DNA of 64,000 nucleotides from Actinomycetota bacterium. GTDB lineage: Bacteria > Actinomycetota > UBA4738 > HRBIN12. Below the pieces are notes generated by a model. It ran no database searches, had not been told where the DNA came from, and saw nothing but the letters and a program-made list of their open reading frames with translations. The stretch is from the NCBI GenBank assembly GCA_036374435.1, contig DASUTU010000030.1:15539-79538 (forward strand), in the 5' to 3' direction. The position numbers were made by a program, and so were the translations under genes. The stretch's first letter is position 1; each line of letters opens with the position of its first letter. Of the stretch, positions 1-20,897 are shown one piece after another.

Positions 1-210
1 GACCGGGCCGAGATCGACAAGTGGCTGAGCTCGATCGAGGCCGGCGTCGTCTACGTGAACCGCCGGGCCGGCGCCACCACCGGCGCGTGGCCGGGGGTCC
101 AGCCGTTCGGCGGCTGGAAGGGGTCAGGGACGTCCGGGAAGGCGGGCGGCGGTCCGTATTACGTGCAGCAGTACTTGCGCGAGCAGTCCAGGACGGTGAT
201 CGAGGAATGA
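1..210 (+). CDS. Aldehyde dehydrogenase, 3' fragment (P5C / glutamate-semialdehyde dehydrogenase type); 5' end lies outside the window
   Basis: Frame-1 translation ends ...GATTGAWPGVQPFGGWKGSGTSGKAGGGPYYVQQYLREQSRTVIEE*, the conserved ALDH C-terminal catalytic-domain region (QPFGG..SGT..KAGG). The TGA stop overlaps the next ATG (ATGA). Confidence 0.6.
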   Translation, partial: DRAEIDKWLSSIEAGVVYVNRRAGATTGAWPGVQPFGGWKGSGTSGKAGGGPYYVQQYLREQSRTVIEE

Positions 211-1505
211 CCGCGGTCGAGGCACCGGAGGACCTGGATCTCGCGAACGCGCAGGCCCCGCACCTCGTGACGGAGGTGCCGGGGCCGCGGGCGAGGGAGA
301 TCATCGAGCGCGACGCCAGAGTCACCAGCCCATCGCTGCCGCGAGCCTACGAGCTCGTTCCGCGGCGTGGCGCCGGATCGGTGGTGGAAGACGTCGACGG
401 CAACCGGTTCCTCGACGTGAACGCCGGCATCGCCGTCACCTCGACCGGCCACGCGCATCCCGAGGTGGTCGAGGCCGTTCAGCGCCAGGCCGCCGAGCTC
501 ATCCACTACTCGGCGAGCGACTTCTACCTGCCGATCTACTCCGAGGTGTGCGAGGTCCTGGACCGCATCGCGCCCATGTCCGCGCCGACGCGCTCGTTCC
601 TGACGAACTCGGGGACCGAGGCGGTGGAGGCGGCGATCAAGCTCTCGCGCTACGCGACCGGCCGGCAATACGTGATCGCGATGATCGGGTCGTTCCACGG
701 GCGCTCCTACGGGAGCGTCTCGCTCACCGCGAGCAAGGCGAAGTACCGGGCCAACTTCGGCCCGATGCTCCCGGGCATCCACCACACGCACTTCGGCGAC
801 TTCGAGCATCTCGAGAACGTGCTGTTCCGGCACCTCGTCGCGCCGCACGAGGTCGCGGCCATCGTGGTCGAGCCGATCCTGGGGGAAGGCGGCTACGTGC
901 CGCCGCCCGAGGGATGGTTCAGCTACCTGCGCGAGGTGTGCGACCGGCACGGCATCCTGCTCGTGGCCGACGAGGTGCAGAGCGGCGCTGGGCGCACCGG
1001 GAAGATGTGGGCCATCGAGCACTTCGGCGTGGAGCCCGATGTCCTGCTGAGCGGCAAAGGCATCGCCAGCGGGATGCCGCTGGGCGCGATGGTGGCGCGG
1101 GCGGACCTGATGACGTGGGAGCTCGGGGCCCACGGCTCGACCTACGGGGGGAGCCCCCCGTCCTGTGCGGCGGCGCTCGCCACGGTGGCGCTGCTCGAGG
1201 GCGGGCTGATCGACAACGCCCGCGAGACCGGCCGGGTCCTGCTCGACGGCCTCCACGACATCCAAGCGAGGCACCCGGTCGTGAAGGAGGTTCGCGGGCT
1301 CGGGATGATGATCGGCGTCGAGCTCTCGGATCACGAAACCATGGTCGCCGTGGAGCACGCCGCGTTCCGCCGGGGGTTGCTCGTGCTGGGGTGCGGCGAG
1401 AACGCGATCCGGATGTCGCCGCCGCTGGTCCTTCGGCGCGATCAGGCCCAGACCGCTCTCGAGGTCTTCGAGGAGGCCGTGGCCGAGGTGGACCGAGAGG
1501 CGTGA
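207..1505 (+). CDS. gabT: Class-III (omega) aminotransferase, 4-aminobutyrate aminotransferase (GabT) family
   Basis: ORF 21..1505 with start moved to the Met of MTAVEAPEDL (aa 63). N-terminus LVTEVPGP..VEDVDGNRFLD..GIAVTSTGHAHPEVV and PLP-fold motifs resemble actinobacterial GabT. ATGA overlap with the upstream gene. Confidence 0.8.
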   Translation: MTAVEAPEDLDLANAQAPHLVTEVPGPRAREIIERDARVTSPSLPRAYELVPRRGAGSVVEDVDGNRFLDVNAGIAVTSTGHAHPEVVEAVQRQAAELIHYSASDFYLPIYSEVCEVLDRIAPMSAPTRSFLTNSGTEAVEAAIKLSRYATGRQYVIAMIGSFHGRSYGSVSLTASKAKYRANFGPMLPGIHHTHFGDFEHLENVLFRHLVAPHEVAAIVVEPILGEGGYVPPPEGWFSYLREVCDRHGILLVADEVQSGAGRTGKMWAIEHFGVEPDVLLSGKGIASGMPLGAMVARADLMTWELGAHGSTYGGSPPSCAAALATVALLEGGLIDNARETGRVLLDGLHDIQARHPVVKEVRGLGMMIGVELSDHETMVAVEHAAFRRGLLVLGCGENAIRMSPPLVLRRDQAQTALEVFEEAVAEVDREA

Positions 1506-1521
1506 GGAGAGGGCGGCTCGG

Positions 1522-2436
1522 GTGAGCAAGCTCGCCACGATGCGGGACGCCGTCGCCGAGATCGTCCGCGACGGCGACACCGTGGCGATCGAGGGCTTCA
1601 CCCACCTGATCTGCTTCGCCGCCGGGCACGAGATCATCCGCCAGCGCAGGCGCGACCTGACGCTCGCCCGGATGACGCCCGACGTGATCTACGACCAGAT
1701 GATCGGCGCCGGCGTCGCCCGCAAGCTGGTCTTCTCCTGGCTCGGCAACCCGGGGGTGGGCTCGCTGCACGCGGTCCGCCGCCGGATCGAGCACGGGGAT
1801 CCCGCCTCGCTGGAGATCGAGGAGTATTCGCACTTCGGCATGGTGTGCCGGTACGTCGCCGGGGCCTCGAACCTCCCGTTCTTCCCCATCCGCAGCTACT
1901 TCGAGAGCGACATCCCCAGCGTGAACCCGAACATCAAGCCGATGCGTTCGCCGTACGACGACGGGACCGAGGTCTTCGTCGTGCCCCCGCTCAGGCCGGA
2001 CGTCACGATCGTGCACGCCCAGCGCGCCACCGCCGACGGCGACTCGCAGATCTGGGGACTCCTCGGGTGCCAGAAGGAGGCCGCGTTCGCCGCCGACCGG
2101 GTGATCGTGGTGTGTGAGGAGGTCGTGGAGGAGTCGGTGGTCCGGCAGGACCCCAACCGGACGGTGATCCCCGGCATCGTGGTGGACGCGGTGGTCGAGG
2201 AGCCATTCGCCTGCCACCCCAGCTACGCCCAGGGCTACTACGACCGCGACAACGTGTTCTACCGGGAGTGGGAGGGCATCTCGAAGGACCCCGAGGCCCT
2301 CGAGGCCTGGCTGAAGGAGTGGGTGTACGGGCTCGAGAGCCATGCGGAGTACACGGAGAAGATGACGGACCGGCGGGCCGAGCTCGCGCCGGGCGAGCGC
2401 CTGTCCGGCCAGGTCAACTACGGGACGTACGCATGA
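1522..2436 (+). CDS. Family-I CoA-transferase subunit A (3-oxoacid / glutaconate CoA-transferase type)
   Basis: 304 aa; MSKLATMRDAVAEIVRDGDTVAIEGF... is typical of subunit A. It pairs with a downstream B subunit. Confidence 0.8.
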   Translation: MSKLATMRDAVAEIVRDGDTVAIEGFTHLICFAAGHEIIRQRRRDLTLARMTPDVIYDQMIGAGVARKLVFSWLGNPGVGSLHAVRRRIEHGDPASLEIEEYSHFGMVCRYVAGASNLPFFPIRSYFESDIPSVNPNIKPMRSPYDDGTEVFVVPPLRPDVTIVHAQRATADGDSQIWGLLGCQKEAAFAADRVIVVCEEVVEESVVRQDPNRTVIPGIVVDAVVEEPFACHPSYAQGYYDRDNVFYREWEGISKDPEALEAWLKEWVYGLESHAEYTEKMTDRRAELAPGERLSGQVNYGTYA

Positions 2437-3212
2437 GCTCGGCGCCGACCGACGGCTACACGAAGAACGAGATGATGATCGCCGCGAGCGCGCGGACGCT
2501 GGCCGGCGAGCGCATCTGCTTCGTCGGCGTGGGGCTGCCCAACATCGTGTGCAATCTTGCGCAGCGAACTGTGGCGCCCGAGCTCCAACTCGTGTACGAG
2601 GCCGGCGTGTTCGGCGCGCGTCCGGCCCGACTGCCGCTCTCGATCGGCGACCCGACGCTCGTGTCGGGATCGACGGCCGTCACGTCGATGTTCGAGCTGT
2701 TCGCGTTCTACCTCCAGGCCGGGCTGATCGACGCCGCCTTCCTCGGCGGCGCGCAGATCGACCGGTTCGGGAACCTCAACACGACCGTCATCGGCGACTA
2801 CGCGAGCCCGAAGGTTCGGCTCCCCGGGTCGGGCGGCGCCTGCGAGATCGCCATCCACGCTCGGAAGATCCTCGTGATCATGCGTCAGGCCCCCCGGTCG
2901 TTCGTGGAGAGGCTGCACTTCCGGACCTCGCCAGGCCACTCGGGCGACCCCGAGCACGACCGCGCCCGCGGGTGGTTCGGCAGCGGGCCGACCAGCGTCG
3001 TGACCGATCTCGGGACCTACGGGTTCGACGAGGAGACGGGCGAGATGACCCTGCTGACGCTTCACCCCGGGGTCACGCTCGACCAGGTCCGCGAGAGCAT
3101 GGCGTGGGACCCGAAGGTCTCGGACGAGCTCGGCGAGACCCCCGTGCCGACCGGCGACGAGCTGCGGATCATCCGGACCGAGCTCGATCCCAAGGGAGCG
3201 CTCACCTCGTGA
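2433..3212 (+). CDS. Family-I CoA-transferase subunit B
   Basis: Start placed at MSSAPTDGYTKNEMMIAASAR (aa 56 of ORF 2268..3212). ATGA overlap with subunit A. The GVGLPNIV.. motif region is typical of B subunits. Confidence 0.8.
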   Translation: MSSAPTDGYTKNEMMIAASARTLAGERICFVGVGLPNIVCNLAQRTVAPELQLVYEAGVFGARPARLPLSIGDPTLVSGSTAVTSMFELFAFYLQAGLIDAAFLGGAQIDRFGNLNTTVIGDYASPKVRLPGSGGACEIAIHARKILVIMRQAPRSFVERLHFRTSPGHSGDPEHDRARGWFGSGPTSVVTDLGTYGFDEETGEMTLLTLHPGVTLDQVRESMAWDPKVSDELGETPVPTGDELRIIRTELDPKGALTS

Positions 3213-4528
3213 GCCACGTGTTCCACCGGGTCCTGACGCGCGACCTGCCGCGCGCCGTTCGGGCCGAAGGTGTCTGGGTCGAGGACGCCGGCGGAAAGCG
3301 GTACCTCGACGCCGCCGGCGGGGCGATCGTGGTCAACGTCGGGCACGGCGACCGCTCGCTGGTCGAGGCGATGGCCGCCCAGGCCGGCCGGGTGCCGTAC
3401 GTGCACGGAACCGCGTTCACCACCGACGCGCTCGAGGCCTACGCCGACGACGTCGCGCCGCTCCTGCCGCTGGAGGACGCCCGGATCTATCCGGTGTCCG
3501 GGGGGAGCGAGGCCGTCGAGACGGCGATCAAGCTCGCGCGCGCGTACCACCTCGCCCGCGGCCGGGAGTCGAGAACGCTCGTGATCGGCCGCCGGGCCTC
3601 CTACCACGGCAACACGCTCGGGGCGCTCGACGCCGGCGGCAAGGAGACCCTGAAGAAGCCGTACGGGCCGTGGCTGGGGCGGTTCGTCCACGTGGAGGCG
3701 GCGTACGAGTACCGCTGCCCGAACTCGAATCACCCGACGGGCTGCGGCGCCTGGCACGCGTCGCGGCTCGAGCGGGCGATCGAGGACGCGGGCCCGTCGA
3801 CGGTCGCGGCCTTCATCGCCGAGCCGGTGGGCGGCGCCACGCTCGCCGCGGCGGTTCCCACCGACGACTACTGGCCGGCGGTGACCGAGGTGTGCCGCCG
3901 CCACGGGGTCCTCGTGATCGCCGACGAGGTGATGACGGGGTTCGGCCGGACGGGACGGTGGTTCGGGCTCGACCATTGGTCGGTCCGAGCGGACGTCGTG
4001 ACGGTGGGCAAGGGCTCGACCTCCGGATACTGGCCGTTCGGGTTCGCCGCGTGTTCGAGCGAGGTGTTCGAGGCGGTTCGTGCCCGCGGGTTCGTCCACG
4101 GCTTCACGTGGTCGCACAACGGCGTGGGAGCGGCCGTCGCCCACGCCGCGCTCCGCCGCCTCCGCGACGACGGGCTGGTCGAGGCGAGCGCCCGCCAGGG
4201 CGAGCGGCTCCTGAAGGACCTCTCGGCCGCCCTGGTCGACGATCCGATCGTCGGCGACGCGCGCGGGATCGGCTCGATGATCGGGATCGAGCTCGTGGCC
4301 GACCGCTCGACCAAAGCCGCCTTCGCGCGAGCCGAGCAGGTGACCGAACGCACCCTGGCCGCCGCTCGCGAGGAGGGCCTCCTCCTGTATTCGAGCACCG
4401 GCCACGTCGACGGCACCAACGGCGACCTGGTGATGCTCGGGCCGCCGTTCGTCATCTCGGACGAGGAGTGCGACCTCGTCGTGGAGCGGACCGCTGCGGC
4501 CATCGCGCGCGTCTCGGGGGCCGGCTAG
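3209..4528 (+). CDS. Class-III aminotransferase (omega-amino acid / diamine:pyruvate-type)
   Basis: GTG start overlapping the upstream stop (GTGA). Has VNVGHGD, PVSGGSEAVETAIKLAR, EVMTGFGRTG and TVGKG (PLP lysine) motifs. Confidence 0.85.
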   Translation: MSHVFHRVLTRDLPRAVRAEGVWVEDAGGKRYLDAAGGAIVVNVGHGDRSLVEAMAAQAGRVPYVHGTAFTTDALEAYADDVAPLLPLEDARIYPVSGGSEAVETAIKLARAYHLARGRESRTLVIGRRASYHGNTLGALDAGGKETLKKPYGPWLGRFVHVEAAYEYRCPNSNHPTGCGAWHASRLERAIEDAGPSTVAAFIAEPVGGATLAAAVPTDDYWPAVTEVCRRHGVLVIADEVMTGFGRTGRWFGLDHWSVRADVVTVGKGSTSGYWPFGFAACSSEVFEAVRARGFVHGFTWSHNGVGAAVAHAALRRLRDDGLVEASARQGERLLKDLSAALVDDPIVGDARGIGSMIGIELVADRSTKAAFARAEQVTERTLAAAREEGLLLYSSTGHVDGTNGDLVMLGPPFVISDEECDLVVERTAAAIARVSGAG

Positions 4529-4530
4529 GG

Positions 4531-5679
4531 GTGGGGGGCCGGGCCGGGCTCGTGGTCAATCCCGAGGCCAAGATCTACGACCACGGTCCCGCCCACCCCC
4601 TCAGGCCCCAACGCGTCCTGTTCACGTGGGACCTGATCCGGGCGTGTGGCCTGCTCGAGCTGCCGCAGGTCCTCGAGCTCGGGGCCGAGGCCGCAGGCGA
4701 CGACCGGCTCGGCCTCGTGCACACCGAGGACTTCATCGAAGCCACCAGGCGTGCCGGGCACGGAGAAGCCGGGGAGTGGTGGCGGTACGGCTACGGCCCC
4801 GGCGACAACCCGATCTTCCCCCAGATGCACGAGGCGGGCGCGCTCGTTGCCGGCGCCACGCTCGCCGCGGCCGAGGCGGTCCACGAGGGCCGCGTGGACC
4901 ACGCGTTCAACGCCGCCGGCGGCCTGCACCACGCGATGCCGTCCCGGGCGTCGGGGTTCTGCGTGTACGACGACCCGGCCATCGCCATCGCCTGGCTGCT
5001 CGAGCGCGGCGTCCATCCGATCGCCTACGTCGACGTCGATGTGCATCACGGCGACGGCCCGCAGGCGATCTTCTACGATGATCCACGGGTGCTCACGATC
5101 TCGCTCCACGAGTCCGGCGAGTACCTGTTCCCCGGCAGCGGGTTCATCACCGAACGCGGCGACGGCCCGGGAGAAGGCACGAAGGTCAACGTCCCGTTCC
5201 ATCCCGGCACCACCGGACGGGCCTGGCTGGCCGCGTTCGAGTCGATCGTGCCCCCGTTGCTCCGGGCGTTCGGACCGCAGGTACTCGTGACCCAGCTCGG
5301 GGCGGACTCGCACGTCACCGATCCGCTGGCCCACCTGCGGCTCACGACCGATGTCTACCGGCAGGTGGCGTCGATGCTGCACGCGCTGGCCCACGAGGTG
5401 ACCGGCGGTCGGTGGATCGCCACCGGCGGCGGCGGGTACCAGTGGGCCACGGTGGTCCCGCGCGCCTGGACCCTGTCCTTCGCCGAGATGTGCGGCGCCG
5501 ACCTGCCCGACCACCTTCCCGAGGGCTGGATCGAGACGGTCGAGTTCGAGATCCGCGCCGAGGTCCCCGTGACGTTCTCGGACCCGCCGGTCGAAGGCGA
5601 CCACCTCGACGGCGAGACCGAAGCCACGATCGAGCTGGTGCGGAAGACCTGCTTCCCGTTCTTCGGGCTCGAGGCGTGA
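4531..5679 (+). CDS. Histone-deacetylase-family amidohydrolase (AcuC / acetylpolyamine amidohydrolase-like)
   Basis: Contains VDVDVHHGDG and SLHESGEYLFPGSG plus the Arg-binding-loop region of the HDAC/AcuC/Aph family. GTG at 4531 lies directly after the upstream TAG (alternative GTG at 4552). Confidence 0.75.
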   Translation: MGGRAGLVVNPEAKIYDHGPAHPLRPQRVLFTWDLIRACGLLELPQVLELGAEAAGDDRLGLVHTEDFIEATRRAGHGEAGEWWRYGYGPGDNPIFPQMHEAGALVAGATLAAAEAVHEGRVDHAFNAAGGLHHAMPSRASGFCVYDDPAIAIAWLLERGVHPIAYVDVDVHHGDGPQAIFYDDPRVLTISLHESGEYLFPGSGFITERGDGPGEGTKVNVPFHPGTTGRAWLAAFESIVPPLLRAFGPQVLVTQLGADSHVTDPLAHLRLTTDVYRQVASMLHALAHEVTGGRWIATGGGGYQWATVVPRAWTLSFAEMCGADLPDHLPEGWIETVEFEIRAEVPVTFSDPPVEGDHLDGETEATIELVRKTCFPFFGLEA

Positions 5680-7100
5680 ACCGGCGCGGGGTCAAGCTCG
5701 TCTGCACGTTGGGCCCGGCGACCGCCTCGCTCGAACGCGTCCGCGCGCTGGCCGAGGCCGGCTGCGAGGTGTTCCGGGTCAACCTGTCCCACGGCGACCG
5801 CGCCCAGTGGGACGAGCTGTTCTCCCTGGTCCGCTCCGTCTCCGAGGAGCGAGGGGACGACCTCGCCGTGTTGAGCGATCTGCCGGGGCCGAAGATCCGG
5901 CTGGGGCAGTTCGAAGCCGGAGAGGTCGAGCTCGAGGCCGGAGGCCGGTTCGAGCTCCGTCCCGACGTCGAATCGCCGGGCGACGCGACCGGGGCGGGGA
6001 CGACGTACGACGGTTTGGCCGCCGACGTCCGGCCCGGCGACCGCATCCTGCTCGCCGACGGCGCCGCCGAGCTGGTGGTGGCCTCGACGGACGGCTCGAT
6101 CGTGGTGAGCGAGGTGGTCCGGGCCGGACTGGTGCGTTCGGGCGGTGGCGTGAACGTGCCGGCCGAGCGGCTCGGGCTCCCCGCTGTCACCGAGCGCGAC
6201 CGAACGCGCCTGGCCGAGGCGCTCGGGCGCGGAGCCGACCTGGTGGCGCAGTCCTTCGTGCGGAACGCCGCCGATGTGGCCGAGCTCCGCGCGTTGATGG
6301 GGGAGCGAGCCGTGCCGATCGTCGCGAAGATCGAGACCCGACCGGCCGTGGAGGGCATCGAGGCCATCCTGCGGGAGGCGGACGCGATCATGGTGGCGAG
6401 GGGCGACCTCGGCGTCGAGCTGCCGATGGAAGAGATCCCGATCCTGCAGAAGGAGCTGTTGCAGGCGGCGCAGCGCGCATCGCGGCCGGTGATCGTCGCC
6501 ACCCAGATGCTCGAGTCGATGACGGCGGCCCCACGGCCCACCCGGGCCGAGGCCACCGATGTGGCGAACGCGGTGCTCGACGGCGCCGACGCCATCATGC
6601 TCTCGGCCGAGACCGCCATCGGCGCCTATCCGGTGGAGGCGGCGACCGCCGCCGTCCGGATCGCCGAGGTGGCCGGGGAGCGCGGCGCCGAGTTCCGCTC
6701 CCCACCCGCCTCGTGCACGCACGAAGACGAAGCCGGCGCCGTGGCGCACGCGGCCGCGAGGATCGCCGCCGCCGACCGCGACGTCGTCGCGATCACCTGC
6801 TACACGCAGACCGGCCGTACCGCGGCGCTGCTCTCGGCCGAACGCCCCTCGGTCCCGGTTTACGCGTTCGTTCCGAAGTCCGAGGTCCGCCGGGCGCTCG
6901 CATTGCGGTGGGGCGTCCATGCCCTTCGCGCGCGGATCCCAGACGACACCGACGAGATGATCGCGCTGATGGACGAGGGCCTGCGCGCCGAAGGGTTCGC
7001 CCGGGACGGCGACGCCGTCGTCATGGCCGCCTCCTCGCCCGCCGGGATCATGCGGACGAACATGCTCAAGGTGCACCACCTGGGCAGCGCGGTCCGCTGA
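5676..7100 (+). CDS. pyk: Pyruvate kinase
   Basis: VNRRGVKLVCTLGPATASLERVRALAEAGCEVFRVNLSHGD... is the canonical PK N-terminus. 474 aa; GTGA overlap with the upstream gene. Confidence 0.9.
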   Translation: MNRRGVKLVCTLGPATASLERVRALAEAGCEVFRVNLSHGDRAQWDELFSLVRSVSEERGDDLAVLSDLPGPKIRLGQFEAGEVELEAGGRFELRPDVESPGDATGAGTTYDGLAADVRPGDRILLADGAAELVVASTDGSIVVSEVVRAGLVRSGGGVNVPAERLGLPAVTERDRTRLAEALGRGADLVAQSFVRNAADVAELRALMGERAVPIVAKIETRPAVEGIEAILREADAIMVARGDLGVELPMEEIPILQKELLQAAQRASRPVIVATQMLESMTAAPRPTRAEATDVANAVLDGADAIMLSAETAIGAYPVEAATAAVRIAEVAGERGAEFRSPPASCTHEDEAGAVAHAAARIAAADRDVVAITCYTQTGRTAALLSAERPSVPVYAFVPKSEVRRALALRWGVHALRARIPDDTDEMIALMDEGLRAEGFARDGDAVVMAASSPAGIMRTNMLKVHHLGSAVR

Positions 7101-7112
7101 CGGTCGATCCGG

Positions 7113-7901
7113 TCAGGTCCTTCGCCGGGCCCGGGTGGTCACGGCGCCGAGACCCCATCGGTAGAGGGATGGCGTCAGCACTCGAAACGCCTGGAATGCG
7201 GCGAGCGTTCGAGGCACGGAGATCTCGGGCCCGCGGCCGCGGCGGACCACGTCTTCGATCGTCCTGGCGATCCGGTCGACGTCGACCAGGAGGGCGCGTG
7301 GGACGGCCACGCTCGGGAACCGTTCGGTCTTGGCGAACCCCGGGTTCACCGCCGTCACGAGTACGCCCTGCGGTTCCAGCTCGTGGAACAGCGCTTCGCT
7401 GAACGCCACCACACCGTGTTTGGTGGCCGAATACACCGCCGCGCCCGGGACGGCGTACCGGCCGGCCAGCGAGGCGACGTTCACCACGTGGCCCCGGCCG
7501 CGCTCGAGCATCTCGGGCAGGAACGCCTTGGTGACCAGCAGGACCGAGAGCAGGTTCACCCGCACCACGCGTTCGACCTCCTCGACCGAGACCGCCTCGA
7601 ACCGGCCGCCGCCGGGAATCCCCGCGTTGTTGACCAACACGTCGCAGCGGCCGAACGCCCCCAGCGTTGCCTCGACCAACGACGCGACGTCGGCGCCGTC
7701 CGTGACGTCGCATCGGACGGGCAGGGCCTCGCCGCCGCGAGTGCGGATTCGTTCCTCGAGCGACTCGAGCCGGTCGAGCCGGCGCGCCGCGAGCACCACC
7801 CGCGACCCCGCGCGGGCGAACCGCAAGGCCGTGGCCTCGCCGATCCCGGACGAGGCCCCGGTCACCACCACCACCGCGCCGCGAAGGTCCACGGGCCGCA
7901 A
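7113..7901 (-). CDS. Short-chain dehydrogenase/reductase (SDR)
   Basis: Has VVVTGASSGIG (Rossmann), NNAG, and the S...Y...K catalytic triad context (YSATK). Confidence 0.85.
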   Translation of the reverse strand: MRPVDLRGAVVVVTGASSGIGEATALRFARAGSRVVLAARRLDRLESLEERIRTRGGEALPVRCDVTDGADVASLVEATLGAFGRCDVLVNNAGIPGGGRFEAVSVEEVERVVRVNLLSVLLVTKAFLPEMLERGRGHVVNVASLAGRYAVPGAAVYSATKHGVVAFSEALFHELEPQGVLVTAVNPGFAKTERFPSVAVPRALLVDVDRIARTIEDVVRRGRGPEISVPRTLAAFQAFRVLTPSLYRWGLGAVTTRARRRT

Positions 7902-7924
7902 GCCTAGGCCACCGCTCTCGTACG

Positions 7925-8764
7925 ATGGAGGAACCGATGGACGTGGTCCGGTCTCATGCCGCCCGGCTTCCGGCGATCGACGATCGCTGGGAGCCTCGCC
8001 ACCACGACCGGGACGAGCTGATCCTGGGCCTGCTCGACGGACGGGTGGCGTTCGAGGAGGTCAGCCACCCGCTCGACAACGTCCTGCGCAACATCGGACT
8101 GCTGGTCGGTGGCGACCCCGACAAACAGTTCGGCCTGAGCGGCCTGAACGGCTTCTCGCGTCGCGAGATCCTCGAGCTGGTGGGGGCGGCGGCGGGGTTC
8201 GAGCCCGACCACTACGCCAGCACCGGGCCCGTGCCCGTGGATCCCGAGCGCGTGCTCCTGGCCTGCGAGCGGGTCGGGGACCGCATGGCCGAGGCGTGCC
8301 GCCGCGGTGAGCGGGTGATCTTCGCCACGGGCCACCCGGTCGGCCTCATCCACCTCTACACGGCGGTGGGGCGCGAGCTCCGGGCTCGCGGGGTCGAGCT
8401 GCTCACGCCGGCCGACGGCCTCACCTGGCACGACGACGAACGCGACCATCCCTGGCAGATCCGGTACCTCGAGGGGGTCGCGCTGCTCACCGACATCGCC
8501 AGCGCCCGCCACACGCACAGCCCGGACCCGATGCGACGGATGCTCGAGCTCGAGCGGCCGGACCTCGTGTTCGCCGACCACGGGTGGGCGGGAGCGGCCA
8601 TCGAGGACGGCGTCGACACCGTCTCGATCGCCGACGTGAACGACCCGGCGCTGGTCGTGGCGCAAGCCCAGGGACGGTCCGAGACCGTGATCGTCATGGA
8701 CGACAACGTCCGCCCGGAGGGTTACTGGCCCTGTTTCCAGGCGATCGTCTCCCGCCTGCCCTGA
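7925..8764 (+). CDS. Conserved hypothetical protein
   Basis: 279-aa ORF with good GC3 skew. The overlapping 588-aa antisense ORF is R/S/T/P-rich junk. No family recognised. Confidence 0.5.
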   Translation: MEEPMDVVRSHAARLPAIDDRWEPRHHDRDELILGLLDGRVAFEEVSHPLDNVLRNIGLLVGGDPDKQFGLSGLNGFSRREILELVGAAAGFEPDHYASTGPVPVDPERVLLACERVGDRMAEACRRGERVIFATGHPVGLIHLYTAVGRELRARGVELLTPADGLTWHDDERDHPWQIRYLEGVALLTDIASARHTHSPDPMRRMLELERPDLVFADHGWAGAAIEDGVDTVSIADVNDPALVVAQAQGRSETVIVMDDNVRPEGYWPCFQAIVSRLP

Positions 8765-8987
8765 GGAAGGTCCGCCGGACCCGATCCGCCCACCCCGGTA
8801 GGATGGCCCCGACGTGAACTCCACATCCGACCCCGAGGCACGGCTCGAACGCGTGAACAGGTTCAACTGGCGCGCACCCATCCACCTCGTGACCATCTCG
8901 ACGATCCCCCGGCGGAGGCATCCGGCAACCGGGTAGCCCGGCACGCGTGCGAACGGGCCTCCGAGGCCGACCAACCCGGAGGCGGAC

Positions 8988-9878
8988 GTGAACGAGTACG
9001 AAGCGCTCGTCGACCAGGCCGTGCGCACGAAGAACACCGTGATGCTCGTCGGCGGGCTCGACACCGGCAAGAGCACCCTGTCCCGGACGCTGCTCCAGGC
9101 GGCGGTGTCCGCCGGGCGCCGGGCGGCGTTCATCGACGCCGACGTCGGACAGAAGTCGGTGGGTCCGCCGGCGACGATCACGCTCAAGGCGACGGCCGCG
9201 GTGGCGGACCTTGAGCCGGAACGGTTCGCCGGCCAGGACGCGTTGGCCTTCGTCGGATCGACCTCCCCCGAGGGGCACCTCCTCCCGGTGCTCGCCGGCG
9301 TGGCCACCCTGCACCGCCGGGCGGTCGAGGAGAAGGCCGAGTTCGTCGTGGTGGACACCTCCGGCCTCGTGTCCGGCGTGCACGGGCAGATCCTCAAGTA
9401 CCACAAGGTCGAGCTTCTGCGGCCGGATCTGGTGGTCGGGCTCCAGCGGGGCGAGGAGCTCCTGCCGCTGTTGGGCGTGATCCAGCGGTTCTTCCCCACG
9501 GAGGTCGTGCCGATGGTTGTCCACCCCGGCGTCGTGCCGACCACGGTCGACCAGCGGGCCGAGAACCGGGAGATGGCGATGCGCCGGTACTTCGCCGGAG
9601 AGCTGCACCGCTTCCGGGTCAAGCCGACGGTGTTCATGCCGGCCCTGCCGCCGCTCTTCGACCTGGCCAACCTGCATCGGATCCTCGTGGGGCTCTCGGA
9701 CGGCGCCGGTGCCTACACGGGGCTTGGGTACCTCGAGCACGCTCCCGACGACGGCGTCCTGCGGCTCATCTCGCCCGTGGCAGCGGGGCCAAAGGCGCTT
9801 AGACTGGGGTCCGTCCGCCTCGAGAAGGACTTCCGCGCCAAGCGGGTCGACCTCCGGCATCTGTTCGGGTCGGAGTAA
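8988..9878 (+). CDS. Clp1/Grc3/Nol9-family P-loop NTPase (putative polynucleotide 5'-hydroxyl kinase) homologue
   Basis: Walker A VMLVGGLDTGKSTL is followed by FIDADVGQKSVGPPATI (Clp1 'clasp' DxGQ motif) and the Walker-B-like FVVVDTSGLV. This order and spacing match Clp1. Confidence 0.65.
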   Translation: MNEYEALVDQAVRTKNTVMLVGGLDTGKSTLSRTLLQAAVSAGRRAAFIDADVGQKSVGPPATITLKATAAVADLEPERFAGQDALAFVGSTSPEGHLLPVLAGVATLHRRAVEEKAEFVVVDTSGLVSGVHGQILKYHKVELLRPDLVVGLQRGEELLPLLGVIQRFFPTEVVPMVVHPGVVPTTVDQRAENREMAMRRYFAGELHRFRVKPTVFMPALPPLFDLANLHRILVGLSDGAGAYTGLGYLEHAPDDGVLRLISPVAAGPKALRLGSVRLEKDFRAKRVDLRHLFGSE

Positions 9879-13748: not shown

Positions 13749-14462
13749 CGCATGTGGCTGTTCCCGACGCTGGCGGCGGTGGTGGCGGCGGCGTTCGCGG
13801 CGCTCCTGGCCCGCCAGTTCGCGCAGCGGCGACGGTCCTACCAGGCGATCTGGGCCGTCGCCCTCCTGATGTACGCGGTCGCCTCGGTCTCGGTCGCGCT
13901 CGGCGCGGCCGACGGGTGGACCTCCGGCGAGTTCCGCGTGTACTGGGCCCTCGGGGCGGTGCTGAACGTGCCGTTCCTGGCGCAGGGAGAGCTCGACTTG
14001 CTGATCCGGACGCCCGCCGTCCGGTTCGCCCTGTACGTGGTCCTGGTCTTCGTGACCGCGTACACCATCGCGGTGGTTCGGACGGCTCCGGTCGACGGGG
14101 CGGCCCTGGGGCAAGACCTGCCGTCTGGCCGGGAGGTCTTCGGCGACGGCTCCTCGGCGTATCGGCTCCCCCGGATCATCTCGACGCCGGCGTACCTCGT
14201 GCTGCTGGGCGGGGCGCTCTGGTCGGCGTGGCGGATGCGAGGACGCCCGGCGCTCCGCGACCGCTTCTGGGGGACCCTCCTCATCGCGCTGGGGGCCACG
14301 GTGATCGCCGGGTTCGGTTCCGCGTTCGCCGCCCTGGGGCACCTGTTGCCGTTCTCGCTGTCGCTGCTTGCGGGGATCGCGGTGATGTTCGCCGGGTTCC
14401 TTCGGGCGTCCCGGCCGGGGAGTCGCACGCCGTCGGAGCCCGCGACCCAGGCGGCGAGTTAG
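13749..14462 (+). CDS. Integral membrane protein, function unknown
   Basis: About 6 predicted TM helices. Start taken at MWLFPTLAAV within ORF 13671..14462. Confidence 0.5.
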   Translation, partial: RMWLFPTLAAVVAAAFAALLARQFAQRRRSYQAIWAVALLMYAVASVSVALGAADGWTSGEFRVYWALGAVLNVPFLAQGELDLLIRTPAVRFALYVVLVFVTAYTIAVVRTAPVDGAALGQDLPSGREVFGDGSSAYRLPRIISTPAYLVLLGGALWSAWRMRGRPALRDRFWGTLLIALGATVIAGFGSAFAALGHLLPFSLSLLAGIAVMFAGFLRASRPGSRTPSEPATQAAS

Positions 14463-15205
14463 GCGAGCTCCGCCCTCCAGGACCGGCCCGCGGTGCTCGG
14501 GGCGGCCGGCGGCCCGCCCACGCGTTCTTCGGTGATCCAGACCTCGTCGAACCGCGACACGTCCACCGTGAGCTTGATCAACACCTTCCCACCGCTCGGG
14601 ACGAACATCTCTCCCACCGGGGTGAACGCGCCGTCGCGGCCCAGCCAGAGCTGGTACGCGTGTCCGGGGCGAGGTTCGGGACAGACCGAGGCGACCAGGT
14701 ACAGCCGGCGAACGTCCGGGGCCGCCGCGGCCACGAACCCCGAGCCGGCCGGAGCTTCCCCCTGCGGGTCCAGGGAGACCGGTTCCACGTCGGGCGAGCG
14801 CATGAGCGAGATCAGCTCCAGGGCCAGGGTGCGCTCGTCCTCGGCCTGGCTCGCCCGGTTCATCGACAGGAACGAGAGCCCACCCATCGCCACGAGGGCG
14901 ACGATCCCAGCCGCCAGGGCCACGGACGATCCCCGGCCGGCCCGTGGGCTCGGGCCGATGTCCTCCTCCAGGCGTCGCCGGATCCTGGCCCAGACCAGGT
15001 CGGGCGCGGAGACCGGCTCGGCGTCGAGGGCGAGGTCCCCGGCGACCGAACGCAGGTCGGCGAGCATCTGGCGACAGGACGGGCAGGAGGGCACGTGGTC
15101 GGCCAGGAGCCGATCGGCCTCGACGGCGTCCGCGTCCGAGAGCGACCGGAGCGTGTATCCGGCGAGCAGCTCCTCGATCCGTTCGTGCTCCTGCTCCAAG
15201 CTCAT
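14459..15205 (-). CDS. Membrane-spanning zinc-binding (ZAS, HxxxCxxC) anti-sigma factor
   Basis: N-terminal HVPSCPSCRQ motif and a single TM helix (ALAAGIVALVAMGGLSF), followed by a C-terminal extracytoplasmic domain. ATGA-coupled to the upstream ECF sigma gene. Confidence 0.7.
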   Translation of the reverse strand: MSLEQEHERIEELLAGYTLRSLSDADAVEADRLLADHVPSCPSCRQMLADLRSVAGDLALDAEPVSAPDLVWARIRRRLEEDIGPSPRAGRGSSVALAAGIVALVAMGGLSFLSMNRASQAEDERTLALELISLMRSPDVEPVSLDPQGEAPAGSGFVAAAAPDVRRLYLVASVCPEPRPGHAYQLWLGRDGAFTPVGEMFVPSGGKVLIKLTVDVSRFDEVWITEERVGGPPAAPSTAGRSWRAELA

Positions 15206-15768
15206 TCCTCCGCGGGAAGGGCGCGCCGCAGCTTGCGCATGGCGGCGAGCGTTCGCGTCTTGACCGTTCCGAGCGGGATCCCGAGGGCCTCGGCGATCCG
15301 ACTCTGTGTGTAGCCGCCGAAGTATGCCAGCTCGACCACCTGCCGCTGCTCGGCGGGGAGCGTCGTCAGGGCTTCCCGGACCTGCTTCCTGCGGATCGCG
15401 AGGTACGAACCCTCAACGACGTCGTCTGCAACATCTTCGCCACGAACGGGCTCGAGGTTCGAGGCTCGTTCCCCTCGCCGGCGCATCCGCTCCTCGCGCC
15501 GCACGGCGTCCACGGCCCGGTGGTGCACCAGCGACAGGAAGAACGATCGGAACGCCCCACGGGCCGGGTCGAACGCCTCGGGCGCCCGCCACATGGCGAG
15601 GAAGGCGTCCTGGACGACCTCCTGCGCCAGGGCCTCCTGCGCCGTGATCCGCAGCGCGAGCCCATACGCGGCGTCCCCGTATCGTCGGTAGAGCTCCTCG
15701 AACGCGTCCCGGTCGCCGGCGGACAGGCGCCGGTGCAGACCGAGGTCGTGGAGGTCGTCGTTCGACAC
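15202..15768 (-). CDS. ECF (sigma-70 family) RNA polymerase sigma factor
   Basis: Region 2 (AYGLALRITAQEALAQEVVQDAFLAMW) and region 4 (LAYFGGYTQSRIAEALGIPLGTVKTR). Confidence 0.85.
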   Translation of the reverse strand: MSNDDLHDLGLHRRLSAGDRDAFEELYRRYGDAAYGLALRITAQEALAQEVVQDAFLAMWRAPEAFDPARGAFRSFFLSLVHHRAVDAVRREERMRRRGERASNLEPVRGEDVADDVVEGSYLAIRRKQVREALTTLPAEQRQVVELAYFGGYTQSRIAEALGIPLGTVKTRTLAAMRKLRRALPAEE

Positions 15769-15818
15769 GGCGCCTTCCTACCACGACCACCTGAGGGGGC
15801 CGTTAGGATGCCCGGCCG

Positions 15819-16954: not shown

Positions 16955-17701
16955 TCAGGCCGGTCCGTACCAGGGCGGGGCCGTCCCGCCGGTCAAGATC
17001 TCCTTGCGCCTGCGCTCGGCGCGGTCGAGCAGCGGGAGGTGGATGGCCAGCCCCACCGCGGACCCGATCAGGAACATCCACGAGTACCGGTCCACGCTTC
17101 CCGAGTCATGCCGCATGAGGAGGGTCACGCGGGGCCCTCCGCCCGTGAAGTACCCCTGCGCCGCAGCCAGCGAGACGTCCTCCGCGGTGGCGAACCGGAT
17201 CTGCTCGATCGCGAAGTCGCTCGTCTGCAGGGCACCTGGCTCGTGGACGCCCAGTCCGAGGTCCTCGTTCGCCCGCTCCGCGAGGAACCCCTGGGCGGCG
17301 GTCGTCACGCTCTGGACCGATGCGCTGTCCGCGTTGTTCGAACCGGGAGCTCGCCACTCCTGCCCGTCGGGGTAGGTGGCGTAGGCGTCGTAGACCGGCT
17401 CCGGGTCGGTGCCGACGGACTCGACCACCCACGCGGGCTCGGCGCCTCGAGGGCCGAGGTTCACGGGGGTGTCCAGGCCCTGGCTGACCCAGAACCCGGT
17501 GAGCCAGATGAACGAAATGATGAACATCCATCCGAAGAAGCCCACCGCCAGAACGAGGTACCCCATCCGCCTGCCGAAGACCGCCGAGAGCAGCAGCAGG
17601 ACGCTGCCGACGAACAGGACGAACCCGAGGACGGTGGCCAGGCCGCCCTTCAGGAGCGTCTCGCAGGGAATCTCGAACCCGACGCACGTCTGGGCGAGCA
17701 T
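16955..17701 (-). CDS. Membrane protein (3 TM) of unknown function, last large gene of the bc-complex operon
   Basis: Start moved to MLAQTCVGFEIPCETLLKGG (ATG overlaps the cytochrome c stop, TGATG). The first 123 aa of ORF 16955..18070 are low-complexity read-through. Confidence 0.55.
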   Translation of the reverse strand: MLAQTCVGFEIPCETLLKGGLATVLGFVLFVGSVLLLLSAVFGRRMGYLVLAVGFFGWMFIISFIWLTGFWVSQGLDTPVNLGPRGAEPAWVVESVGTDPEPVYDAYATYPDGQEWRAPGSNNADSASVQSVTTAAQGFLAERANEDLGLGVHEPGALQTSDFAIEQIRFATAEDVSLAAAQGYFTGGGPRVTLLMRHDSGSVDRYSWMFLIGSAVGLAIHLPLLDRAERRRKEILTGGTAPPWYGPA

Positions 17702-18438
17702 CAGACTTGCGCCTCCGGGTTGTCCGTGGCCGGCGGCTTGTCCGGGAACTCCTCGTCGGCCTGCGTCTGCGCGTCGGGGTTGGTGCACACGTTCTGCTCG
17801 GCCGGCACCTGCTCCTCGTCCTGGATGCTCACGAGGTACGCCACGATGTCGTTGATCTGCTGCTCGTTCAGGGCCCCCTCGTAGCGAACGCTCCACGACG
17901 GCATCAGGCCCCGCCCCTGCTCGATCGTCGTGTAGATGTCGGCCAGGCGGTGGATCGCCGGGTGGCCGGTGAACGGGCCCCCACACACCGTGGTGAGGTT
18001 CGGCACCTGGATCGGAGTGTTCGTCTCCGTGTTGAGGATCACGCCGCCGGTCAGGTCGTCCCCGTGACACTGGACGCAGCCCACGCCGGACTGGTTCTCC
18101 TCGGTGAACAGCTCGACGGCGTGACGTCCGCGCTCGATCGCGCTGTCGGTGACCTCTCGTTCCTGCGTGAGGTTGACGTTCGGCTCGAACAGCCAGACCA
18201 CCGGGACCCAGATCACGAAGAACACGACCATCAAGACGCCCCAGCCCTGCAGCTTCTGGAGCAGGGGGGTCTCGAGATCGGCGTCGGAGGGACCCGGACG
18301 CATCCCATGCGGGACGTCCGGCGGCGGAACGACACCCGGACGGCGGCCACGCAGGAGCAGGACGGCGCCGGCGACGGCGACGACGACGGCGCCGCCGATG
18401 GCGAGGATGACCGCCTGCGCCGGGCTGATCGCGATCAC
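17701..18438 (-). CDS. Membrane-anchored mono-heme cytochrome c
   Basis: Two N-terminal TM helices, then a single CxxCH (GCVQCHGDD). Confidence 0.8.
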   Translation of the reverse strand: MIAISPAQAVILAIGGAVVVAVAGAVLLLRGRRPGVVPPPDVPHGMRPGPSDADLETPLLQKLQGWGVLMVVFFVIWVPVVWLFEPNVNLTQEREVTDSAIERGRHAVELFTEENQSGVGCVQCHGDDLTGGVILNTETNTPIQVPNLTTVCGGPFTGHPAIHRLADIYTTIEQGRGLMPSWSVRYEGALNEQQINDIVAYLVSIQDEEQVPAEQNVCTNPDAQTQADEEFPDKPPATDNPEAQV

Positions 18439-18448
18439 CGCGTCCCCC

Positions 18449-19186
18449 TCATACGGTGGCCACGCAGAACGGCCCTGCCTGGGGGCGCTGGAGCGTGTCG
18501 GTGCCGCGCGGCGGTCCCGGGACGACCACGGAGGTGTCGACCAGCACGTCCCCGGCGTCGGTGATCTCGATCCGGAACCGGTCCAGTCCGCGAGGAGCGG
18601 GACCCAGCTTGTATTCGCCCGCGGTGTTGTACTTCGAGCCGTGACAGGGACACTCGAACCACTGCGACTGCTTGCAGAACGGGACCCGGCAGCCGAGGTG
18701 CACGCAGCGCTGGTACAGCGGCATGACCCCCTCCGCCGCCAACTGGTCGGACGCGTAGTCGATGTCGCCGGAGGGACGGCCGTCGTAGATCACGATGTAG
18801 AAGCGGCCGGTGCCCGAATACACGGGCTCCTCGGTGGAGTTGATCGCGCGGCGGATGTCGGCGAGCTTTCCGGCGTTGATCACCGAACCGAACCCGCCCC
18901 GGAGGTTCGGCCACAGGAACGCGAGGGTCGCGCCCCCGAACTGCGCCCCGAACACAAGGAGGGAAGCAACCAGCGACTTCCGGAAGAACTCGCGCCGGCT
19001 GAGGGGCTTGGGGGCCTTGGGGGCGGGCTCGCCCAGCGCCGCGGCGGTGGCGGCGGCCTCGGCGGCCCGCTGCTCGCGCCGCGCTCGGAGGAACGAGAGC
19101 CCGAAGGCGATCGCGAACAGGTCGACGATGACGATGACGACGATCGCTACCAGCGTCCCGGTCGAGATGGCCAGCACCGGCGTCAT
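18449..19186 (-). CDS. qcrA: Rieske [2Fe-2S] iron-sulfur protein of the cytochrome bc/b6c complex
   Basis: CVHLGCRVP and CPCHGSKY boxes, and the Tat-like SRREFFRKS. Start taken at MTPVLAIS (ATGA overlap with the subunit IV stop). Confidence 0.85.
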
Positions 19187-20088
19187 AACTCGAAGAACAC
19201 CCCTTGCGCCCACGGCCAGACCCAGTTGTAGCCGGTGCCGCGGAAGAAGGACCCGATGATGGTCAACGTGGCGCCGAACATCATCAGCATCGTGAACATG
19301 GTGATCGCGAGCTTGCGATCACCCGGCTTGGTGCTCGGGTTGCGGTCGACGTAGGGAACCACCGCCAGGGCGAGCAGCACCAGCGTCGGAGCGAAGAGCA
19401 CGCCGGCCACCATGGGGTGGAAGTACCGCAGCAGCTCCTGGAGGCCGAGGAAGTACCACGGGGCCTTCGACGGGTTCGGGGTCAGGTTCGGGTTGGCGAG
19501 CTCGCGCAGCGGCGCATTGACGAACGTCGAGAAGATCACCAGCCCGCCGAGCACGATCAGCATGGCCACGAACTCCTCGATCAGCAGGTGCGGCCAGACG
19601 TTGATCCGGTCCCCCTGCTCCCGCTCGACCCGCTGGATCCCCTCGGGCGGCACCAGCGCCAGCAGCCGGTGTTTCTCCTGCGCCCCCTTCTTCGGCTCCG
19701 GCACGTTCCCGGTCGGAGCCGGCGCCTGCCTGGTGGGAGCCAATGTGGTGGCACCGGCGGCGGGCGCCGAAGCGGCGGCAGCCGCCGCAGGTGCCGACGC
19801 AGCAGCAGCGGGGGCCGGAGCTGCGCTCGGAGCGGAGGTCGCCGCAGGCGCCGGCGACTCGGCCGCGCCCGAAGCCGCTCCACCATCCCCCTCCGCCGCG
19901 GCTGAGCGAGCCGGCGTGGCGGCGGCCGGAGCGGGCGCGCTGCCCTCTCCGGTCTTGGCTCTATGGGCTCGAACGGCAGCCGAGCGGGCCCGGCCTTCGG
20001 CGACCCGCCGGTCGGTGCCCTTAGCGAGCTCGTCGGCCAGGACCCGGTCGAAGGTCTCCTGGTCGAGCGGGGTGTCGTCGCGCGCCAT
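19183..20088 (-). CDS. Cytochrome b C-terminal half (b6f subunit IV-like, 3 TM) with an N-terminal extension of about 150 aa
   Basis: C-terminal [28 protein letters not shown] matches PetD/QcrB-C. The N-terminus has a conserved 28-aa motif plus an Ala/Pro-rich linker. Confidence 0.8.
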
Positions 20089-20104
20089 GTCCTTGCCTCA
20101 GCTC

Positions 20105-20875
20105 CTACAGCGGTCCCGAGATGCCACCGTCTTTGCGGATCCGCCAGAAGTGCACCGCCAGGAAGATCACCAGCACGAACGGCAGCGCGAGCACGTGCAA
20201 CACGTACCAGCGGAGCAACGTGTCCGGTCCCACCACCACGCCGCCGAGCAATAGGAAGTTCGCCTGGCTGGCGATCATGGGCGAGTACGCGGCGAGGGAC
20301 GTCCCCACCGTAACCGCCCAGATCGCGAGCTGGTCCCACGGCAGCAGGTAGCCGGTGAACGACAGCCCGAGCGTCAGGAACAGCAAGACCACGCCGACCA
20401 CCCAGTTGAACTCCCGCGGCGGCTTGTACGAGCCCGTGTAGAAGACGCGGGCCATGTGCAGCGTCACGGTGAAGACCATCAGGTGGGCGCCCCAACGGTG
20501 GATGTTGCGGACCAGGTCGCCGAAGAACACGGACGTCCGGATGTTCTGCATGTCGGTGTACGCCTGGGCCGCGCCGATCTCCGCGGCGGGCCGGTAGAAG
20601 AACATCAGGAAGATCCCGGTCACCGTGAGCAGGATGAACAGGAAGAACGAGAGGCCGCCCAGGCAGAACGTGTAGGTCAACTTCAGCCCGTGACGCTTCA
20701 TCTTGACGGGGTGGAGGTGGTACAGGACGTTGTTCATGGTCGCGAGCGCCCGGTCGCGCGACGTGTCCTTGTAGCCCTTGCGGAAGATCGATCCCGGCCG
20801 GAAGATCGACTTCCAGACCTCGGTCTCCCGAACTCGATCCAGCACCTCGCTCGGCGAGGGCGGTTTGAGCTTCAC
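20105..20875 (-). CDS. qcrB: Cytochrome b6 (N-terminal, heme-binding half of a split cytochrome b)
   Basis: GTG start ([26 protein letters not shown]) after GGAAGGAGCGGG. Heme-ligand His in RWGAHLMVF and [16 protein letters not shown]; 4 TM helices. Confidence 0.85.
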
Positions 20876-20897
20876 CCCGCTCCTTCCCCAGCTCTCG

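Follow-up and report, generated by a model that had tools for sequence, protein, structure and literature searches.

The gabDT operon of Escherichia coli and the davDT operon of Pseudomonas each place a semialdehyde dehydrogenase before an omega-amino-acid aminotransferase, and polyamine routes are known in which an acetylpolyamine amidohydrolase (APAH) acts together with a SpuC-type polyamine:pyruvate transaminase. For single enzymes of the locus considered here, the closest described counterparts include the coenzyme A (CoA)-transferase GctAB of Acidaminococcus fermentans and the deacetylases AcuC of Bacillus subtilis and HDLP of Aquifex. They also include the ornithine (Orn)/lysine (Lys) omega(delta)-aminotransferase PH1423 of Pyrococcus horikoshii, and both PH1423 and TK2101 of Thermococcus use L/D-Orn and Lys with 2-oxoglutarate and are weakly active on 5-aminovalerate and gamma-aminobutyrate (GABA; PMC9986279). 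Herein we describe a putative catabolic operon at one end of a 64,000-nucleotide stretch of DNA (contig DASUTU010000030.1, positions 15,539 to 79,538), termed the window, which has ~70% GC and comes from an uncultured soil Actinomycetota bacterium. Positions 1–7100 carry seven + strand genes, representing the 3′ 6.1 genes of the operon, for an aldehyde dehydrogenase (ALDH), a class-III aminotransferase (AT1), the two subunits of a predicted glutaconate-type CoA-transferase (GctA and GctB), a second class-III aminotransferase (AT2), an HDAC-family zinc deacetylase (referred to as HDAC), and pyruvate kinase (PK).

The operon is an evolutionary composite of an older five-gene core, ALDH-AT1-GctA-GctB-AT2, and two genes, for HDAC and PK, that joined it in one Actinomycetota clade only. 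We propose, with a probability of about one half, that the core serves the catabolism of amino compounds as a basic-amino-acid or omega-amine module to which HDAC and PK were added. Each enzyme of the operon comes from a familiar family. The function of the five-gene core is not described in the literature that we searched, and literature on the gene combination, on AcuC with pyruvate kinase, and on gctAB with lysine degradation likewise yielded nothing relevant.

Conservation of a Five-Gene Core and Its Later Additions

Relatives of the operon were collected as one genome per species, anchored on GctA, and the best 80 of >541 were taken, with 73–91% identity. The window proteins, together with the proteins encoded upstream in relative L001, were mapped onto these 80 loci (L001 and so on), and the counts given below and in Table 1 use only those loci with enough flanking DNA. 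Nearly all of the 80 loci are from metagenome-assembled genomes of uncultured soil Actinomycetota, with a few from Chloroflexota (e.g., Limnocylindrales, CSP1-4), and no cultured representative of the lineage is found among these 80 best genome matches. The same genes recur in the same order in dozens of species, and the arrangement is thus clearly not due to chance. The five core genes are found in 91–99% of loci and are common to Actinomycetota and Chloroflexota, so that the core is the older part of the operon.

A neighbor-joining tree of GctA plus GctB separates a basal group from a crown Actinomycetota clade. Three Chloroflexota and six other loci form the basal group, which has ALDH-AT1-GctAB(-AT2) and lacks HDAC, PK, and the short-chain dehydrogenase/reductase (SDR) gene that flanks the operon in the window, while in the crown clade HDAC is present, PK is usual, and the operon lies in an SDR-phosphatase-CLP1_P neighborhood. 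The seven genes are therefore not the single conserved unit envisaged in the first-pass annotation of the window, as HDAC and PK are clade-specific and PK is missing from the locus in 11 related species. These 11 crown-clade loci keep AT2 and/or HDAC and show no trace of PK within ±10 kb, and the gene is absent at approximately six separate places in the crown clade (L041, L005, the L007/L009/L010/L011 group, L040, L038, and L058). In L041 and L035 the HDAC gene directly abuts the SDR gene. PK is thus dispensable at the operon locus, and its repeated absence means that it is unnecessary for the module. Moreover, the conservation of PK (32/50) is about equal to that of the functionally unrelated SDR neighbor (37/49).

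One further property of the relatives concerns GctA itself. Across Actinomycetota and Chloroflexota it is 73–91% identical while its neighbors ALDH, AT1, and AT2 drop to ~60%, and a conservation above that of any neighbor suggests either unusually strong constraint or lateral transfer.

Gene Layout and Junctions

The high GC content of the window gives rise to long spurious open reading frames (ORFs) in all six frames, and over positions 1–7100 a single + strand frame per segment has coding character (third-position GC 0.92–0.97, GC1 > GC2). The lengths of the six complete proteins (432, 304, 259, 439, 382, and 474 amino acids (aa)) match independent gene calls in relatives. The features of the operon are listed in Table 1. 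Direct reading of the sequence bears out exactly the operon structure and junction layout that had been described for this DNA, and Pfam likewise upholds the seven domain assignments. Searches with Rfam (window, L001, and L003) and for tRNA genes (window) gave no matches. No sigma-70 promoter or intrinsic terminator was found in scans of 1–8200, a result of low information value for an actinobacterium of 70% GC.

Table 1. Operon features in the window, their junctions and flanking genes, and their occurrence in relatives (loci with the gene/loci with enough flanking DNA)
Feature	Position	Strand	Basis and remarks	Relatives
ALDH 3′ end, 69 codons + TGA	1..210	+	P5C-dehydrogenase-like; Pfam Aldedh 1e-07; start lies upstream of window	53/55
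ALDH/AT1 junction	207-210		ATGA
AT1, class-III aminotransferase, 432 aa	207..1505	+	Aminotran_3 1.6e-114; ATG start overlaps ALDH stop	58/59
Glyoxalase_6/VOC gene between AT1 and GctA			Missing in window	45/67
Spacer, 16 nt, with Shine-Dalgarno-like GGAGAGGG	1506..1521	+	Read from sequence
GctA, glutaconate-type (family I) CoA-transferase subunit A (predicted), 304 aa	1522..2436	+	CoA_trans 1.4e-21; GTG start
GctA/GctB junction	2433-2436		ATGA
GctB, glutaconate-type CoA-transferase subunit B (predicted), 259 aa	2433..3212	+	CoA_trans 3.1e-37	68/69
GctB/AT2 junction	3209-3212		GTGA
AT2, amine:pyruvate-type class-III omega-transaminase (predicted), 439 aa	3209..4528	+	Aminotran_3 2.9e-84	60/66
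AT2/HDAC junction	4526-4533		TAG-GG-GTG, 2-nt gap
HDAC, AcuC-like zinc deacetylase (predicted), 382 aa	4531..5679	+	Hist_deacetyl 2.4e-83; GTG start	48/58
HDAC/PK junction	5676-5679		GTGA
PK, canonical pyruvate kinase (predicted), 474 aa	5676..7100	+	PK 3.3e-99, PK_C 1.5e-25; final operon gene	32/50
SDR gene, convergent	7113-7901	-	Gene calls; 12 nt past PK stop; bounds operon 3′ end; function unrelated	37/49

It had been proposed that the 4-nucleotide (nt) overlaps between the genes imply strict stoichiometric co-expression. Such overlaps are, however, a genome-wide habit and nothing unusual for this operon: of the 46 same-strand junctions that the window has outside it, 14 overlap by 4 nt and five by 1 nt (approximate counts, perhaps slightly inflated, as the start-codon picker is crude and biased to high third-position GC), and in one run of complex-I-type genes 13 junctions in a row are of ≤4 nt. 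Given how frequent they are in this genome, the overlaps imply no special stoichiometric coupling, and the AT1/GctA and GctB/AT2 joints are loose in relatives, where they contain insertions.

Comparison across species resolves the operon into three tightly coupled blocks, ALDH-AT1, GctA-GctB, and AT2-HDAC-PK, with loose joints between them. Overlaps of 4 nt are found for ALDH/AT1 in 54/61, GctA/GctB in 64/77, AT2/HDAC in 30/51, and HDAC/PK in 34/41, and for GctB/AT2 in just 10/62 loci, with a median gap of ~165 nt. In relatives the AT1/GctA joint commonly holds a Glyoxalase_6/VOC gene (e.g., L001 6297-6689, L002 6388-6768), and the GctB/AT2 joint is a hot spot for insertions, in contrast to the clean GTGA overlap of the window. 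Neither the window nor L003, its nearest sibling, has the VOC gene or the GctB/AT2 insertion, as seen when the window is aligned with L003 and L001. Hence, the window copy looks fully coupled because the VOC gene and the spacer that are still present in relatives were lost.

Several features of these joints are worth recording. The VOC gene is duplicated in L027, L028, L033, L051, L052, and L084, a VOC-GctA fusion was called once (P0138, 401 aa), and the VOC protein might partner the CoA-transferase as an acyl-CoA epimerase/isomerase. At the GctB/AT2 joint, a remnant of a PIN-like ORF is recognized by the look of its sequence, and without Pfam confirmation, in L001 (8420-8569), L043 (19397-19798), and L057 (1710-1847), and a Peptidase_S51 plus DUF1003 pair occupies the same joint in L035 (6850-8111).

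Enzymes of the Core

The 69 residues of ALDH within the window match residues 453-521 of the L001 enzyme (521 aa) with 100% identity, and the best NCBIfam hits of the fragment are the C-termini of PutA and pyrroline-5-carboxylate (P5C) dehydrogenase (P5CDH). The best PDB matches of the full-length L001 enzyme are also P5C dehydrogenases (3qan, 1.8e-98), and its top families are NF002852 (431 bits, cut-off 648) and TIGR01237 (421 bits, cut-off 660), in both cases below the cut-off. By these comparisons ALDH appears to be most like a P5C dehydrogenase. The upstream context was read from relatives (L001, L002, and L003). In relatives, ALDH is the first gene of the operon and lies downstream of a divergent FAH-family gene; just upstream are genes for a TetR regulator, a Thermus-type proline dehydrogenase (ProDH), and a bona fide ProC (276 bits, cut-off 197).

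AT1 had been regarded as GabT-like, and this does not hold, as it scores only 339 bits against the GabT model TIGR00700 (cut-off 506.65) and its nearest solved relative is PH1423 (7vno, 1.5e-104). Its best NCBIfam model is NF004426, with a score of 536 bits that is just under the cut-off of 552. The group to which AT1 appears closest is that of the archaeal-type ornithine/lysine omega-aminotransferases. The family also includes pyridoxal phosphate (PLP)-dependent racemases, so the activity of AT1 is not certain.

For AT2, the best NCBIfam model is NF005685 (427 bits, below the cut-off of 485). Its top PDB matches are 6io1 and 3i4j, and these are followed by the putrescine and polyamine:pyruvate transaminases 6gwi, 9j4z, and 6hx9. 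AT2 is assigned by this grouping to the pyruvate-type omega-transaminases, and pyruvate, which had been suggested as its amino acceptor, is the type of acceptor used by the enzymes among which it falls. AT2 was also considered as a Kat-like acyl-CoA transaminase, but Kat is HemL-like and of another subfamily, so that there is no evidence of membership for AT2, and the idea is kept only in the least probable reading given below.

The designation of the CoA-transferase as glutaconate-type is retained, as the best solved matches of both subunits are to the Acidaminococcus enzyme and the catalytic Glu is aligned. The match of GctA to 1poi_A (1.7e-46) is to be compared with those to IpdA (6co6_A, 3.8e-15) and AibA (5mzw_A, 1.8e-12), and that of GctB to 1poi_B (2.8e-39) with 6con_B (1.9e-16) and 3rrl_B (1.5e-09). 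As in the GctAB subfamily, there are two adjacent genes (304 and 259 aa), each with a CoA_trans domain, and the GctAB matches beat those to the IpdAB hydrolase, the AibAB decarboxylase, and the short ScoAB/AtoDA type. The putative catalytic residue is Glu56 of GctB (2598-2600), where VYEAG aligns with IVESG of 1poi_B, and we take this Glu to be the residue that forms the enzyme-CoA thioester. A non-transferase reading of GctAB, as an IpdAB-like ring-cleaving hydrolase or an AibAB-like decarboxylase, was rejected because the match to GctAB is far better and the Glu of the beta subunit is conserved.

In three Chloroflexota loci, and never in Actinomycetota, a gene resembling the alpha subunit of lysine 5,6-aminomutase lies beside GctAB (L059 13901-15463, L071 12250-13830, L082 12931-14268). 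The resemblance is to the TIM barrel only, and the three proteins share 45–46% mutual identity. Each gene is followed by one for a probable membrane protein (hydrophobic sequence; weak LiaF-TM Pfam hits for the L071 copy), and they are convergent on GctAB. A lysine aminomutase link was considered on the basis of these genes and was not used.

A Proposed Role in Amino-Compound Catabolism

In the reading that we favor, a basic amino acid, a diamine, or an omega-amino acid would lose its terminal amino groups through the action of AT2, with pyruvate as acceptor, and AT1, with 2-oxoglutarate as acceptor. ALDH, as a P5CDH-like enzyme, would oxidize the resulting (semi)aldehydes, and GctAB would transfer CoA from acetyl-CoA to the (di)carboxylate product. 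The most coherent single route that makes use of every core gene would lead from lysine or cadaverine via 5-aminovalerate and glutarate to glutaryl-CoA. ALDH-AT1 might also, or instead, convert ornithine via glutamate semialdehyde to glutamate together with the neighboring proline dehydrogenase, and such an ornithine/proline to glutamate role would fit the sequence data equally well, with GctAB then unexplained.

Several points weigh against an amino-compound module of this type. ALDH and AT1 are under the NCBIfam equivalog cut-offs for all named functions, and the specificities of all of the enzymes are extrapolated from relatives that are estimated to be distant. The P5CDH-like ALDH and the proline genes point to an ornithine/proline role, for which no CoA-transferase is needed. 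Neither the annotated genes of the window (those of its first 30 kb plus a sample of the later ones) nor the flanks sampled in relatives included one for glutaryl-CoA dehydrogenase. In the Chloroflexota locus L071, GctAB is found without either aminotransferase beside genes for a crotonase, a Liv-type ABC importer, a thiolase, and a mutase, a context from which GctAB may serve general short-chain acyl-CoA metabolism. Finally, the 4-nt overlap of HDAC and PK in 34 of the 41 species that have both argues that the expression of PK is tied to its block.

Another reading, which we consider doubtful, is that of a super-operon of separate functions held together by descent. Here ALDH-AT1 would convert ornithine/proline to glutamate with ProDH and ProC, GctAB, perhaps together with the VOC protein, would serve short-chain acyl-CoA metabolism, AT2 would be a general omega-transaminase, and the acuC-pyk genes would be a housekeeping or regulatory pair. 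It is consistent with the three separately coupled blocks and their loose, insertion-prone joints, with a P5CDH-like ALDH and an Orn-AT-like AT1 adjacent to ProDH and ProC, and with the acyl-CoA context of GctAB in L071; in addition, the downstream SDR, phosphatase, and CLP1_P genes, which are clearly unrelated in function, are equally syntenic, and the region is otherwise a housekeeping one with respiratory-chain genes. On the other hand, the genes of ALDH-AT1-GctAB-AT2 are kept on the same strand and close together in two phyla (53/55, 58/59, and 60/66 for ALDH, AT1, and AT2), which is unusual for unrelated functions, and the blocks are fully fused in the window and in its nearest sibling.

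Knowledge of the substrate would fill a gap in our understanding of how these soil bacteria use nitrogen-rich compounds. The lineage that carries the operon is abundant in soil metagenomes, with thousands of close homologues in each protein search.

The Deacetylase and Pyruvate Kinase

HDAC is a zinc hydrolase of the HDAC/arginase fold with intact catalytic residues. Its motifs GGLHH (133-134), DVDVHHGDG (168-176), GADSH (257-261), and GGGGY (299-303) presumably supply the HH dyad, the D-x-H and D zinc ligands, and the tyrosine, respectively. The best PDB matches are HDAC6 (CD2, 1.4e-59) and HDLP (1c3r, 1.7e-53), followed by class I HDACs, and no NCBIfam model matched. Its close homologues are also of 382 aa and are named AcuC by JGI and NCBI, by similarity only. 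The acetyl-polyamine deacetylase originally suggested is therefore not what the comparisons favor: the best 60 PDB matches (E ≤ 2e-38), which comprise HDAC6, HDLP, HDAC1/2/3/8, Rpd3/Clr6, and HDAH, include no chain named as an APAH, and HDAC does not group with characterized APAHs over protein deacetylases but is similar to the AcuC/HDLP class-I-like deacetylases.

PK scores 446 bits against the equivalog model TIGR01064 (cut-off 306), a protein 100% identical to it has the NCBI name pyruvate kinase, and these matches mark it as the canonical glycolytic enzyme, as predicted from its sequence. A homologue search returned only close relatives, and the one that was examined (P0342) has the same operon surroundings. 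The place of PK is taken in L040 by a sulfatase gene (14233-15816). We infer that PK is a co-transcribed housekeeping passenger with no step in the pathway. It is also possible that PK regenerates pyruvate for AT2, with AT2-HDAC-PK forming a tightly coupled sub-block where PK is present.

With the above in mind, we consider unlikely the single acetyl-polyamine pathway of the first-pass annotation, in which all seven genes take part. HDAC would deacetylate N-acetyl-cadaverine or N-acetyl-putrescine, AT2 and ALDH would form the omega-amino acid, AT1 and ALDH would convert this to the dicarboxylate, GctAB would activate it, and PK would provide pyruvate for AT2. Such chemistry is coherent and leaves no gene unused; putrescine and polyamine:pyruvate transaminases are among the relatives of AT2, the AT2/HDAC (30/51) and HDAC/PK (34/41) junctions are tightly coupled across species, GctAB does appear to be truly glutaconate-type, and in L016 another amidohydrolase stands in the place of HDAC. 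Against it are the proximity of HDAC to HDAC6, HDLP, and class I enzymes rather than to any APAH, the lack of HDAC and PK in basal loci with the five-gene core, the 11 crown-clade loci that have AT2 and/or HDAC without PK, an AT1 that is Orn/Lys-AT-like and an ALDH that is P5CDH-like, and a PK that satisfies a housekeeping equivalog model. Overall, the domains, the operon, and the type of CoA-transferase from that proposal stand, whereas GabT, APAH, the unity of the seven steps, and the significance given to the coupling do not, and it would mislead annotation to label the operon as an acetyl-polyamine pathway of seven steps with its own pyruvate kinase.

It is similarly improbable that HDAC is a true AcuC-type regulatory protein lysine deacetylase that reactivates acetyl-CoA synthetase, thereby recycling acetate released by GctAB, or acts on PK or the aminotransferases. 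The names given to its homologues, its nearest solved relatives (which are protein deacetylases), the intact catalytic motifs, and the overlap with PK in 34/41 species would all agree with this function. However, AcuC naming is by similarity only, and neither the window nor the flanks annotated with Pfam in L001, L002, and L083 revealed a partner gene (acuA (GNAT), acuB, or that for acetyl-CoA synthetase); no acuA or acuB was seen in the sampled flanks, nor was an AMP-forming synthetase except at one Chloroflexota locus, and we found no literature linking AcuC to pyruvate kinase.

The genes that follow AT2 in certain relatives bear on what the deacetylase might do. In L016 (5961-7574) an Amidohydro_3 gene follows AT2 in the place of HDAC, and in L078 (12732-14639), which has no HDAC, AT2 is followed by a 2Fe-2S plus molybdenum hydroxylase pair. 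These fit, if weakly, a theme of amide to amine to aldehyde to acid around AT2, and because of these other enzymes HDAC, though AcuC-like in sequence, could deacetylate small molecules. HDAC may either unmask an N-acetylated amine for AT2 or be a protein deacetylase.

Least probable of all is a pathway for beta- or omega-amino acids that depends on CoA, in which GctAB would first form the CoA thioester and AT2 would then carry out the transamination (as with Kat and 3-aminobutyryl-CoA), with the AcuC-like enzyme as a feeding N-deacetylase and PK as the supplier of pyruvate. If it were true, it would represent a dedicated tie of a central glycolytic enzyme to amine catabolism in a widespread uncultured soil lineage.

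Other Genes in the Window

Downstream of the operon are genes for a PF15698 "Phosphatase" and a CLP1_P P-loop kinase (8045-9878), a pair that is kept in nearly all crown-clade relatives and that may be an RNA/polynucleotide kinase-phosphatase pair. Much of the remainder of the window is made up of respiratory-chain genes (16955-30388 and 33622-59096), including those for a bc1-type Rieske protein, cytochrome b, cytochrome c, subunits of a caa3 oxidase, and CtaG. The same regions contain two polyprenyl synthase genes and two runs of complex-I-type genes, and a CtaA-CtaB fusion protein of 609 aa is encoded at 28562-30388. With a bc1 complex, a caa3 oxidase, and complex I in the rest of the window, the setting of the operon is a housekeeping one.

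Directly past the complex-I-type run is an IS110-family transposase gene (59119-60291, - strand; DEDD_Tnp_IS110 plus Transposase_20). Beyond it, on the - strand at 60576-63999, are genes for a HAD hydrolase, a PLP decarboxylase, and a HemL-like class-III aminotransferase (402 bits, subfamily cut-off 398). The decarboxylase has a weak likeness to L-2,4-diaminobutyrate decarboxylase (165 bits versus a cut-off of 900), and these three genes may represent a small module for a diamine or an unusual amino compound.

Comparison with Described Systems

The Acidaminococcus fermentans GctAB (1poi) is encoded, like that of the window, by two adjacent subunit genes for proteins of ~300 and ~260 aa, and the Glu residues align, with a match to the window proteins that is moderate (1.7e-46 and 2.8e-39). 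Unlike the Acidaminococcus enzyme, the window GctAB belongs to an actinobacterium of aerobe type, in which complex I, a bc1 complex, and a caa3 oxidase are encoded close by, and no genes were seen for 2-hydroxyglutaryl-CoA dehydratase or glutaconyl-CoA decarboxylase. Of the archaeal PH1423 and TK2101, PH1423 is the best solved relative of AT1, and the P5CDH-like and proline-gene neighbors of AT1 fit an Orn role; the differences are that the host is bacterial and that AT1 is below the NF004426 cut-off.

The deacetylase can be compared with two types of system. With AcuC of B. subtilis and HDLP of Aquifex, the window HDAC shares a similar length (382 aa) and intact motifs, and HDLP is its second-best solved match, but it has no acuA or acuB neighbors and is joined into an aminotransferase-pyruvate kinase block. 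With routes of the APAH plus SpuC type, the operon shares an HDAC-fold hydrolase next to an omega-transaminase that has SpuC-like relatives, but HDAC does not fall with APAH among solved structures and the pairing is confined to one clade.

The likeness to gabDT/davDT-type operons is one of organization, in that an ALDH is followed by a class-III aminotransferase, the two genes are coupled (54/61 species), and the chemistry would be that of amine to aldehyde to acid. Unlike in gabDT and davDT, the window ALDH is nearest to P5C dehydrogenase rather than to succinate or glutarate semialdehyde dehydrogenase, AT1 is nearest to the archaeal Orn/Lys omega-aminotransferases and under the GabT cut-off, and genes for a CoA-transferase and another aminotransferase come after the pair.

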